A stretch of DNA of 64,000 bases from Eledone cirrhosa (GCA_964016885.1 OZ024742.1:354578001-354642000), one strand, 5' to 3'; numbered from the stretch's first letter, positions 55,195 through 60,090 are shown. Notes: a model not told the origin generated them from the sequence alone. A program made the numbers and translations.

Positions 55195-58133
55195 TGAATA
55201 TAGACATAGAATATTCGAAAATATTCTGTATGTTTATAATAAACATTTTGAAGACCTAATCGCTATAGAATAGAATACGTCACGTATTACAATTAGATTC
55301 TCGATAAAAGCAAGGGAAGTAATCTACGCGTTTCATTCTTGTTAGAAATCATCAGGACTACATATCCAGTGCTTTTATCGAGAATGACACAGCTAGAGAC
55401 TTATAGAATACTTAGCTGTGTACAGGAACTGGTTTGAAAGAGCGGTTGCCGGTCCGGCAGAAATTAGAAATTGGAATAAATGCTCTGAAATAGCGATATA
55501 TATGTGAATATAGACATAGAATATTCGAAAATATTCTGTATGTTTATAATAAACATTTTGAAGACCTAATCGCTATAGAATAGAATACGTCACGTATTAC
55601 AATTAGATTCTCGATAAAAGCAAGGGAAGTAATCTACGCGTTTCATTCTTGTTAGAAATCATCAGGACTACATATCCAGTGCTTTTATCGAGAATGACAC
55701 AGCTAGAGACTTATAGAATACTTAGCTGTGTACAGGAACTGGTTTGAAAGAGCGGTTGCCGGTCCGGCAGAAATTAGAAATTGGAATAAATGCTCTGAAA
55801 TAGCGATATATATGTGAATATAGACATAGAATATTCGAAAATATTCTGTATGTTTATAATAAACATTTTGAAGACCTAATCGCTATAGAATAGAATACGT
55901 CACGTATTACAATTAGATTCTCGATAAAAGCAAGGGAAGTAATCTACGCGTTTCATTCTTGTTAGAAATCATCAGGACTACATATCCAGTGCTTTTATCG
56001 AGAATGACACAGCTAGAGACTTATAGAATACTTAGCTGTGTACAGGAACTGGTTTGAAAGAGCGGTTGCCGGTCCGGCAGAAATTAGAAATTGGAATAAA
56101 TGCTCTGAAATAGCGATATATATGTGAATATAGACATAGAATATTCGAAAATATTCTGTATGTTTATAATAAACATTTTGAAGACCTAATCGCTATAGAA
56201 TAGAATACGTCACGTATTACAATTAGATTCTCGATAAAAGCAAGGGAAGTAATCTACGCGTTTCATTCTTGTTAGAAATCATCAGGACTACATATCCAGT
56301 GCTTTTATCGAGAATGACACAGCTAGAGACTTATAGAATACTTAGCTGTGTACAGGAACTGGTTTGAAAGAGCGGTTGCCGGTCCGGCAGAAATTAGAAA
56401 TTGGAATAAATGCTCTGAAATAGCGATATATATGTGAATATAGACATAGAATATTCGAAAATATTCTGTATGTTTATAATAAACATTTTGAAGACCTAAT
56501 CGCTATAGAATAGAATACGTCACGTATTACAATTAGATTCTCGATAAAAGCAAGGGAAGTAATCTACGCGTTTCATTCTTGTTAGAAATCATCAGGACTA
56601 CATATCCAGTGCTTTTATCGAGAATGACACAGCTAGAGACTTATAGAATACTTAGCTGTGTACAGGAACTGGTTTGAAAGAGCGGTTGCCGGTCCGGCAG
56701 AAATTAGAAATTGGAATAAATGCTCTGAAATAGCGATATATATGTGAATATAGACATAGAATATTCGAAAATATTCTGTATGTTTATAATAAACATTTTG
56801 AAGACCTAATCGCTATAGAATAGAATACGTCACGTATTACAATTAGATTCTCGATAAAAGCAAGGGAAGTAATCTACGCGTTTCATTCTTGTTAGAAATC
56901 ATCAGGACTACATATCCAGTGCTTTTATCGAGAATGACACAGCTAGAGACTTATAGAATACTTAGCTGTGTACAGGAACTGGTTTGAAAGAGCGGTTGCC
57001 GGTCCGGCAGAAATTAGAAATTGGAATAAATGCTCTGAAATAGCGATATATATGTGAATATAGACATAGAATATTCGAAAATATTCTGTATGTTTATAAT
57101 AAACATTTTGAAGACCTAATCGCTATAGAATAGAATACGTCACGTATTACAATTAGATTCTCGATAAAAGCAAGGGAAGTAATCTACGCGTTTCATTCTT
57201 GTTAGAAATCATCAGGACTACATATCCAGTGCTTTTATCGAGAATGACACAGCTAGAGACTTATAGAATACTTAGCTGTGTACAGGAACTGGTTTGAAAG
57301 AGCGGTTGCCGGTCCGGCAGAAATTAGAAATTGGAATAAATGCTCTGAAATAGCGATATATATGTGAATATAGACATAGAATATTCGAAAATATTCTGTA
57401 TGTTTATAATAAACATTTTGAAGACCTAATCGCTATAGAATAGAATACGTCACGTATTACAATTAGATTCTCGATAAAAGCAAGGGAAGTAATCTACGCG
57501 TTTCATTCTTGTTAGAAATCATCAGGACTACATATCCAGTGCTTTTATCGAGAATGACACAGCTAGAGACTTATAGAATACTTAGCTGTGTACAGGAACT
57601 GGTTTGAAAGAGCGGTTGCCGGTCCGGCAGAAATTAGAAATTGGAATAAATGCTCTGAAATAGCGATATATATGTGAATATAGACATAGAATATTCGAAA
57701 ATATTCTGTATGTTTATAATAAACATTTTGAAGACCTAATCGCTATAGAATAGAATACGTCACGTATTACAATTAGATTCTCGATAAAAGCAAGGGAAGT
57801 AATCTACGCGTTTCATTCTTGTTAGAAATCATCAGGACTACATATCCAGTGCTTTTATCGAGAATGACACAGCTAGAGACTTATAGAATACTTAGCTGTG
57901 TACAGGAACTGGTTTGAAAGAGCGGTTGCCGGTCCGGCAGAAATTAGAAATTGGAATAAATGCTCTGAAATAGCGATATATATGTGAATATAGACATAGA
58001 ATATTCGAAAATATTCTGTATGTTTATAATAAACATTTTGAAGACCTAATCGCTATAGAATAGAATACGTCACGTATTACAATTAGATTCTCGATAAAAG
58101 CAAGGGAAGTAATCTACGCGTTTCATTCTTGTT
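55195..58133 (-). repeat. 310-bp tandem array (~9.5 apparently identical units), HHR on the minus strand; retrozyme-like family C
   Basis: TAGACATAGA at 55201+310n; complete HHR at 55319-55361+310n (n=0-8). Confidence 0.95.
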
Positions 58134-58150
58134 TCATTCATGTTTCATTC

Positions 58151-60090
58151 ATGTTTATTATAAACATACAGAATATTTTCGAATATTCTATGTCTATATT
58201 CACATATATATCGCTATTTCAGAGCATTTATTCCAATTTCTAATTTCTGCCGGACCGGCAACCGCTCTTTCAAACCAGTTCCTGTACACAGCTAAGTATT
58301 CTATAAGTCTCTAGCTGTGTCATTCTCGATAAAAGCACTGGATATGTAGTCCTGATGATTTCTAACAAGAATGAAACGCGTAGATTACTTCCCTTGCTTT
58401 TATCGAGAATCTAATTGTAATACGTGACGTATTCTATTCTATAGCGATTAGGTCTTCAAAATGTTTATTATAAACATACAGAATATTTTCGAATATTCTA
58501 TGTCTATATTCACATATATATCGCTATTTCAGAGCATTTATTCCAATTTCTAATTTCTGCCGGACCGGCAACCGCTCTTTCAAACCAGTTCCTGTACACA
58601 GCTAAGTATTCTATAAGTCTCTAGCTGTGTCATTCTCGATAAAAGCACTGGATATGTAGTCCTGATGATTTCTAACAAGAATGAAACGCGTAGATTACTT
58701 CCCTTGCTTTTATCGAGAATCTAATTGTAATACGTGACGTATTCTATTCTATAGCGATTAGGTCTTCAAAATGTTTATTATAAACATACAGAATATTTTC
58801 GAATATTCTATGTCTATATTCACATATATATCGCTATTTCAGAGCATTTATTCCAATTTCTAATTTCTGCCGGACCGGCAACCGCTCTTTCAAACCAGTT
58901 CCTGTACACAGCTAAGTATTCTATAAGTCTCTAGCTGTGTCATTCTCGATAAAAGCACTGGATATGTAGTCCTGATGATTTCTAACAAGAATGAAACGCG
59001 TAGATTACTTCCCTTGCTTTTATCGAGAATCTAATTGTAATACGTGACGTATTCTATTCTATAGCGATTAGGTCTTCAAAATGTTTATTATAAACATACA
59101 GAATATTTTCGAATATTCTATGTCTATATTCACATATATATCGCTATTTCAGAGCATTTATTCCAATTTCTAATTTCTGCCGGACCGGCAACCGCTCTTT
59201 CAAACCAGTTCCTGTACACAGCTAAGTATTCTATAAGTCTCTAGCTGTGTCATTCTCGATAAAAGCACTGGATATGTAGTCCTGATGATTTCTAACAAGA
59301 ATGAAACGCGTAGATTACTTCCCTTGCTTTTATCGAGAATCTAATTGTAATACGTGACGTATTCTATTCTATAGCGATTAGGTCTTCAAAATGTTTATTA
59401 TAAACATACAGAATATTTTCGAATATTCTATGTCTATATTCACATATATATCGCTATTTCAGAGCATTTATTCCAATTTCTAATTTCTGCCGGACCGGCA
59501 ACCGCTCTTTCAAACCAGTTCCTGTACACAGCTAAGTATTCTATAAGTCTCTAGCTGTGTCATTCTCGATAAAAGCACTGGATATGTAGTCCTGATGATT
59601 TCTAACAAGAATGAAACGCGTAGATTACTTCCCTTGCTTTTATCGAGAATCTAATTGTAATACGTGACGTATTCTATTCTATAGCGATTAGGTCTTCAAA
59701 ATGTTTATTATAAACATACAGAATATTTTCGAATATTCTATGTCTATATTCACATATATATCGCTATTTCAGAGCATTTATTCCAATTTCTAATTTCTGC
59801 CGGACCGGCAACCGCTCTTTCAAACCAGTTCCTGTACACAGCTAAGTATTCTATAAGTCTCTAGCTGTGTCATTCTCGATAAAAGCACTGGATATGTAGT
59901 CCTGATGATTTCTAACAAGAATGAAACGCGTAGATTACTTCCCTTGCTTTTATCGAGAATCTAATTGTAATACGTGACGTATTCTATTCTATAGCGATTA
60001 GGTCTTCAAAATGTTTATTATAAACATACAGAATATTTTCGAATATTCTATGTCTATATTCACATATATATCGCTATTTCAGAGCATTTA
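58151..60090 (+). repeat. Inverted continuation of the 310-bp array (~6.3 units), HHR on the plus strand
   Basis: Reverse complement of the left arm; HHR at 58346-58388+310n (n=0-5). Confidence 0.95.
58346..58388 (+). ncRNA. Minimal type I hammerhead ribozyme (family C; representative of 15 copies)
   Basis: GUAGUC-CUGAUGA-U-UUCU(AACA)AGAA-U-GAAA-CGCG-UA-GAUUAC; predicted cleavage after 58382; stem I extended by 16 bp AUUCUCGAUAAAAGCA/UGCUUUUAUCGAGAAU. Confidence 0.9.

Follow-up and report, generated by a model that had tools for sequence, protein, structure and literature searches.

Non-LTR retrozymes of metazoans have been described in corals, Mytilus and axolotl, and as a newt satellite, in the form of tandem 150–450-bp units that each carry one type I hammerhead ribozyme, have a GC content below 50%, contain neither an open reading frame (ORF) nor LTRs, and occur as thousands of dispersed copies in genomes in which Penelope-like elements (PLEs) are co-resident (PMC7229834; 10.64898/2026.07.22.740005). 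Cleavage and circular RNAs have been demonstrated for these repeats, and their arrays are described in the available text of the same reports as direct tandem repeats only. Mobilization by PLEs was proposed from co-occurrence, the portions available containing no insertion-site evidence (PMC7229834; 10.64898/2026.07.22.740005), and was also proposed, in a study of Xenopus as far as its available text goes, from homology to pseudo-LTRs. PLE insertions are described with an inverted 5′-truncated copy, a tail of 30–40 bp at one end, and (TA)n targets (PMC8557442). In vitro, the Poseidon PLE of Anolis cleaves AT-rich DNA on both strands, extends each of them and starts reverse transcription at two internal positions one tail apart, and the anole protein is predicted to form a dimer (PMC11167929, excerpts). 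A literature search, with supplements, subscription papers and Repbase/Dfam outside its scope, found no report of cephalopod retrozymes or of two-armed retrozyme arrays. Here, a family of hammerhead repeats in the octopod Eledone cirrhosa is described, nearly all arrays of which consist of two opposed arms with two fixed ends.

Architecture of the arrays

The window is a 64,000-nt stretch of the E. cirrhosa genome (GCA_964016885.1, OZ024742.1:354578001-354642000), in which a first-pass annotation had described a single array at 55195..60090, built from an apparently invariant 310-bp unit and encoding 15 complete hammerheads. The unit and the count were confirmed: the period is 310 bp, no mismatch to the unit occurs within either arm, and 15 complete type I hammerheads are present, six on the + strand and nine on the − strand. 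The single array was not, because Tandem Repeats Finder returned two arrays rather than one, namely two opposed arms that had been overlooked, joined 5′-to-5′ across 17 nt of filler, with both 3′ ends facing outward into TA repeats; the right end lies at 60091. The features are listed below, with unit positions numbered from the predicted cut (position 1 = 58383).

55019..55194, no strand: (TA)n target tract at the left end of the insertion
55183..55195, no strand: left copy of a 13-bp direct repeat, a candidate target-site duplication that is weak alone in such TA-rich DNA
55195..58133, − strand: left arm of 9.48 units, which holds 9 complete hammerheads and has its outer (3′) terminus at position 130 (site A) and its inner terminus at position 292
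58134..58150, no strand: 17-nt junction filler, giving rise to three near-copies of an 11-mer
58151..60091, + strand: right arm of 6.26 units, which holds 6 complete hammerheads and has its inner terminus at position 79 and its outer (3′) terminus at position 159 (site B region)
58322..58410, + strand: perfect 16-bp helix that extends stem I, 58322-58337 pairing with 58395-58410
58346..58388, + strand: example type I hammerhead, predicted cut after 58382
58441..58547, + strand: conserved domain (unit positions 59-165) with two covarying hairpins; site A at about 58512-58521, site B at 58547, and a 26-35-nt 'tail' in between
60089..60101, no strand: right copy of the 13-bp direct repeat

We infer that the filler is a templated insertion, composed of short pieces re-copied from the two arm ends. 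A direct repeat of 11–15 bp was also found at one further array (L034), and at the others any such repeat is hidden by (TA)n; target-site duplications of metazoan non-LTR retrozymes, where there are any, exceed 4 bp. The GC content of the unit is 34%. Its longest ATG-initiated ORF, searched on the circularized unit, is 30 aa; no reverse transcriptase, GIY-YIG endonuclease or rolling-circle ORF was found in it, nor were RNA polymerase III A and B boxes. Judged by its sequence, the family is a metazoan non-LTR retrozyme, a protein-less hammerhead repeat that forms young insertions, as the first-pass annotation had proposed, and the proposal that the window's array is a very young insertion within (TA)n is likewise supported.

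The annotation had also suggested a search for dispersed arrays, and this search revealed a family that is dispersed genome-wide: the ribozyme cut-site junction has 14,929 exact matches in the genome and one variant of the core has 4,581 (control, 0 in each case), and exact junctions to TA number 458 for site A and 943 for site B, for the two patterns tried. A total of 91 arrays were examined, consisting of the window's own, those at 10 loci chosen by the ribozyme core, and those at 79 loci chosen by an end-plus-TA motif; all except the window's lie on one contig (C1). Selection by the end motif fixes one end in most loci and leaves the other end and the orientation free. Seventy-five are whole two-arm arrays, four are two-armed but truncated by the limits of the sequence retrieved around them, two are complex, nine are one-armed (two of them incomplete), and one has two arms on the same strand. 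The seven whole one-armed arrays count against the explanation favored below.

All 75 whole two-arm arrays are head-to-head, and no tail-to-tail array occurs among the 91. In each of the 75, one outer end is at site A and the other at site B, and neither the A/A nor the B/B combination was found. Site A ends fall at positions 118–139 (130 in 35 arrays, 139 in 26) and site B ends at positions 159–170 (165 in 70), so that a 'tail' of 26–35 nt, running from 130 or 139 to 165, is present at one end only in 75/75; an older related family (R2) likewise mostly terminates at the position that corresponds to site B. TA-rich DNA borders 66/75 arrays on both sides and 74/75 on at least one, figures partly built in because most arrays were selected by one TA junction; the outer flank is TA-rich at 9/10 loci chosen by the ribozyme core alone. 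The inner junctions are variable, with an overlap of 1–6 nt in 34 arrays, a blunt join in 9 and filler in 32, and in one array the filler consists of a 272-nt piece of another retroelement, inserted in sense, which counts in favor of the explanation proposed below. Arms range from about 0.2 to 27 units. Changes confined to a single unit are rare (82 in 668 units, about 0.04%), and the window's array has none.

Perfect identity of units and a palindromic layout are also what a fold-back chimera or a collapsed repeat in the reads or assembly would produce. In the window, however, one arm stops at unit position 292 and the other at 79, with filler between them, and neither flank is a mirror image of the other; every one of the 75 arrays, moreover, shows a junction and a variant of its own, which leaves such an artefact scarcely credible. 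Both arms have first-strand polarity relative to the flank, and two target-primed syntheses, initiated at sites A and B, are therefore inferred.

A head-to-head layout with identical variants in both arms could also arise if one cDNA copied itself by folding back, or if one linear RNA were split into two non-overlapping arms by twin priming of the L1 type. Fold-back requires that arm A be contained within arm B, whereas A extends further upstream in 33/75 arrays, by more than one unit in 24; twin priming requires that inner ends lie at the start of the other arm, whereas they are scattered (13 near A and 5 near B, versus 7.7 and 5.3 expected). Arm lengths and inner ends thus largely refute both, and we consider either route very improbable.

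Correspondence with Penelope-like elements

Endonuclease-bearing PLEs resemble the arrays in forming partial tandems with an inverted 5′-truncated copy, a tail at one end and (TA)n or AT-rich targets, and they resemble the unit in having two internal starts of reverse transcription with a type I hammerhead upstream of them (PMC8557442, PMC11167929). Unlike PLEs, the unit has no reverse transcriptase or endonuclease ORF, is 310 nt long rather than several kb, and forms arms of up to 27 units; its arrays behave as PLE insertions do, although it cannot itself be classed as an autonomous PLE. Support for the Penelope-type link suggested in the first-pass annotation now comes from the insertion footprint. 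The conserved domain at unit positions 59–165, which spans both start sites, is likely to be the part recognized by the reverse transcriptase.

Three PLE-like families in the same genome were compared with the unit, and no alignable sequence was found between it and any of them (families A, B and C). Family A is older, and family C is an older sister of family B. In the young family B, an open frame of 1,217 codons lies in a tandem unit of 4,117 bp, copies are arranged head-to-head and junctions to TA occur. Among named homologues the best is a protein of Octopus vulgaris, at 69% identity; family B has no Pfam match of its own, and its reverse transcriptase matches in the PDB are weak. The label PLE-like is based on motifs read from its sequence, on a few homologues with reverse transcriptase or GIY-YIG domains, and on its layout. 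A similar AT-rich hairpin motif ends 24–25 nt before site A in both the unit and family B (about 0.001 expected per 30-nt window), although the motif was defined post hoc and is absent from the predicted fold of family B. The tail of family B measures 41–59 nt (24 in one copy) versus 26–35 nt in the unit, which, like the lack of alignable sequence, counts against the favored explanation. That the genome contains a PLE-like family which is young and intact and shares this layout and target supports insertion of the PLE type.

The ribozyme and the fold of the unit

The hammerhead in each unit is of type I with an intact core, and its predicted cut after 58382 and its motifs are those given in the first-pass annotation: a 6-bp stem I (GUAGUC/GAUUAC), CUGAUGA, GAAA and a GUA triplet. 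The annotated 16-bp helix extending stem I is indeed perfect, and the three further hairpins named with it were recovered. A highly structured RNA, as had been claimed, is predicted both for the 91-nt ribozyme region, which folds more stably than its shuffles (z = −5.5; equally stable in 0/200), and for the whole circle (z = −3.9 versus 60 shuffles).

In other respects the ribozyme is atypical, which counts against the favored explanation: stem II has a U-U pair at its base (A-U in 18/75 arrays), stem III comprises only 2 bp, and the unit falls below the Rfam cut-off. No Rfam family matched the unit at gathering level, and the best match was weak (HH9, 19.2 bits versus a cut-off of 52, E = 0.054). 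The palindromic stem III (ACGCGU) would allow two copies to pair, at a predicted −9.5 kcal/mol, and function as a tandem dimer has been reported for such short palindromic helices (PMC4209133, in part). The minimal and dimeric hammerheads of PLEs and newts described there share with the unit a 6-bp helix I, a 4-bp helix II and a short palindromic helix III that favors dimer cleavage, but the unit lacks their usual G10.1-C11.1 pair, having U-U, or A-U in the 18 arrays, in its place, and it has a GUA triplet (PMC4209133, in the part available). In axolotl HHR_Amex2, helix II likewise has a U-U pair at its base and helix III is 2 bp long; its monomers cleave to 22%, and its dimers cleave better (PMC7229834). 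In the available text of the Xenopus study, 8/9 predicted dimers failed to cleave, which is a further point against the favored explanation. For the E. cirrhosa unit, cleavage is predicted from structure.

Conservation was assessed with two older related families in the genome, R2 (approximately 315 nt) and R3. The alignment comprised the window's unit, one R3 unit and 14/18 R2 units (two of the remainder had no core pattern and two others were also left out), and thus represents three lineages only. Across these three families, 6/27 named pairs changed on both sides, a number reached by 0/500 shuffles. In a hand-anchored comparison with R2, four pairs of the 16-bp helix changed on both sides, and R2 has kept the catalytic core. 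Within the family itself, 0/31 fixed variants fall in the catalytic core, a depletion that is not significant.

The unit shares with hammerhead viroids and plant LTR retrozymes a small, structured and non-coding character, a hammerhead, and a circle as the proposed intermediate, but it differs in that its ribozyme is on one polarity only, is genome-encoded and is of type I rather than type III, and in that no LTR, primer-binding site, 4-bp duplication or evidence of infection accompanies it (PMC11722881). A viroid-like RNA moving between species was considered, as the unit was found in 20 public runs, which belong to 16 studies and carry 17 organism labels, with 76–100% of the sampled words, and a closed 340-nt contig was obtained in 6/6 of the runs with the unit that were examined. 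None of the runs listed with the unit is recorded as RNA. A closed contig arises from tandem DNA as well and cannot separate a circle from a tandem. Moreover, a neighboring repeat family was also present in 3/3 runs checked for it, at comparable depth in two and lower depth in one, and among raw genomic reads totalling 1,938 million letters from one of the labelled organisms (J), none fell on the unit, although a run under the same label has it. These occurrences look like contamination or carry-over of nucleic acid from this species; horizontal transfer was rejected in favor of carry-over on the basis of the neighboring family and the read-negative organism, and we rate a mobile viroid-like agent as highly improbable.

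Variants, the RNA template and a proposed mechanism

Among 75 arrays with two or more full units, 30 variants of the unit were distinguished, of which 21 were seen once and are fixed throughout their array, so that repeated bottlenecks of one unit followed by re-expansion are needed. An array-specific variant is common to both arms in 51/57 testable arrays, compared with a mean of 5.9 and a maximum of 14 in 20,000 shuffles. In four of the six arrays with differing arms, the difference is an extra change in an arm of one or two units; the difference between the arms of array L173 counts against the favored explanation. Later exchange between arms is an unlikely source of the agreement, because a minor variant is on both arms in only four arrays, among 130 minor variants. 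Nearly all arms (142/150) run through a cut site. No excess of inner ends occurs at the cut site (3 versus 3.4 expected), and run-off at the ribozyme cut was therefore rejected.

On the ribozyme strand, the changes fixed within arrays include nine A>G and three T>C (p = 0.036), whereas the changes in single units number seven and eight, respectively; A276G is present in five different variants. The A>G excess is marginal, and tolerance of G-U pairs in helices would give it too. It could stem from editing or from selection for G-U pairs, either of which implies an RNA stage. Ordinary satellite spread by unequal exchange or extrachromosomal DNA circles, with the hammerhead as a passenger, fits the few variants that are repeated within arms (L036 and L184) and point to later DNA exchange, but it leaves unexplained the two fixed strand-specific ends, the lack of tail-to-tail arrays, the covariation of helices and the strand bias of fixed changes, and we judge it improbable.

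The template itself may have been of more than one kind. In one array (L197), each arm, read from its outer end, begins with two units of one common variant before it switches to another; a second array (L181) has a similarly ordered pattern in both arms for one change. A monomer circle does not give such an ordered shared change, and a multi-unit template is therefore indicated in these two arrays. This pattern would be expected if PLE double priming usually acted on long uncut read-through transcripts of existing arrays and circles were not reverse-transcribed, a possibility that is also in keeping with the weak-looking ribozyme and with the report that the anole PLE acted in vitro mainly on unprocessed RNA (PMC11167929). 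Copying of a linear multimer, however, can neither lengthen arms nor fix a new change in all units, yet a unique fixed variant is found in 21/75 arrays, and ordered shared heterogeneity is found in only 2/57 two-arm arrays. An RNA-polymerase or DNA-circle step could supply the missing bottleneck; even so, we regard read-through RNA as an unlikely usual template. The likeliest usual template is a monomer circle, with multi-unit RNA used sometimes. A circle is favored by the passage of arms through the cut site without a surplus of inner ends there, by arm lengths of up to 27 units, and by the 21 variants that were seen once and are fixed throughout their array. The earlier view of the array as a fresh rolling-circle cDNA of a 310-nt circle is thus retained for the usual template, apart from arrays such as L197 and L181, and replaced as regards the product, which is two opposed first-strand copies from two fixed sites rather than one cDNA.

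We consider it probable that the retrozyme is inserted when a Penelope-type enzyme, at a TA-rich break, carries out double target-primed reverse transcription on a single RNA that is likely circular. By analogy with the coral, mussel and axolotl retrozymes, the arrays would be transcribed, and the transcripts, predicted to self-cut best as tandem dimers, would yield 310-nt units that are ligated into circles. A PLE protein, probably a dimer, would then cut (TA)n, and one cDNA would be primed from each DNA end at the internal site A (approximately 130–139) and site B (approximately 165) of the same RNA; the ends fixed at these sites are observed directly. Each copy would extend past the cut site, mostly round a circle and sometimes along multi-unit RNA, over the observed lengths of about 0.2–27 units. 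Finally, the two free cDNA ends would be joined 5′-to-5′ by a repair route that uses microhomology or short templated fillers, as seen at the junctions.

A bolder reading, which we put forward tentatively and with more doubt than confidence, is that a Penelope-type enzyme, acting as a dimer, travels round a single 310-nt circle starting at either end of the break, that each two-armed array records one RNA molecule, and that the family evolves as a population of RNAs on which A-to-I editing and folding selection act, that is, as an endogenous viroid-like replicon with its RNA variants archived in the genome. If this were true, arrays with differing arms such as L173 might record an edit made during copying.

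In the literature found, the return of animal hammerhead repeats into DNA by a PLE enzyme on a circular template has been proposed and not demonstrated. The insertions described here bear the footprint of a PLE and pinpoint where on a 310-nt RNA the two starts lie, which makes a test with purified enzyme concrete. They also bear on the origin of the tandem and inverted structures of PLEs: by a rough estimate, young insertions in the genome number over a thousand, their variants serve as marks of the template, and together they favor a route in which one RNA is copied in two first-strand syntheses and the ends are then joined.

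Inner arm ends and a captured filler

Across the arrays of the 310-bp hammerhead retrozyme unit, whose positions are counted from the predicted ribozyme cut, 13 inner arm ends lie at unit positions 18–22 (2.4 expected) and 12 at positions 255–265 (5.3 expected). One cluster lies in each strand of the 16-bp helix that extends stem I, as if an enzyme had stalled there. At L037, another locus of this genome, the insert between the arms (the filler) is captured sequence:

L037:3099–3370, captured 272-nt filler

Its source is a retroelement with a PHD-like finger, the 39 best-scored copies of which (the filler itself excluded) are 96–98% identical and all located in a single 5-Mb cluster, at 19–24 Mb of contig G000 C25.

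Other hammerheads and repeats in the window

The hammerhead motif search, which gave 1 match over 20 shuffled control runs, predicted motifs in a second repeat family and in further families; two elements of other kinds are also listed.

60138–61569 (+) and 199–1149 (−), second hammerhead repeat family, 456–492 bp, predicted motif
15347 (−) and 25502 (−), single type I hammerheads of other families, predicted motif
43766–47047 (+), non-LTR retrotransposon, uninterrupted 1,093-codon frame (RVT_1, E = 1.6e-22)
29105–29649, 200-bp tandem, its unit presumably tRNA-like and SINE-like

The second hammerhead family, for which an exact 32-mer search returned 11,305 matches, carries a TA tract inside the repeat and a palindromic stem III (ACUAGU), and is frequently arranged head-to-head. 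In the copy next to the right end of the window's 310-bp-unit array, the hammerhead core is altered to CUGUUGA.

Penelope-like families

Three families resembling Penelope-like elements (PLEs) are represented:

35800–37449 (−), family A, decayed piece
19472–20974 (+), family B, decayed piece (family B also at L115–L130)
51320–52547 (−), family C piece
5889 (−) and 6008 (+), head-to-head pair of the family C hammerhead

Family A, which is older and abundant (13,814 first-look candidates), has reverse transcriptase motifs and C-terminal GIY-YIG motifs. Young family B copies have a 4,117-bp unit, a tail of 41–59 nt, an intact 1,217-codon frame containing a long asparagine-rich stretch, and a predicted hammerhead core with a weak stem I; a Pfam search with family B gave no match. 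The 3′ region of family C, which is an older sister of family B, contains a hammerhead that has decayed.

Older relatives of the unit

Elsewhere in the genome lie R2 and R3 as well as a further relative that is 69% identical:

L048:8370–8720, L141–L170, L149:2360–3100 and L256:3115–3495, older relatives of the unit

They have the triplet GUC and a GC-rich stem II and retain unit positions 59–165; they are one lineage in successive waves.
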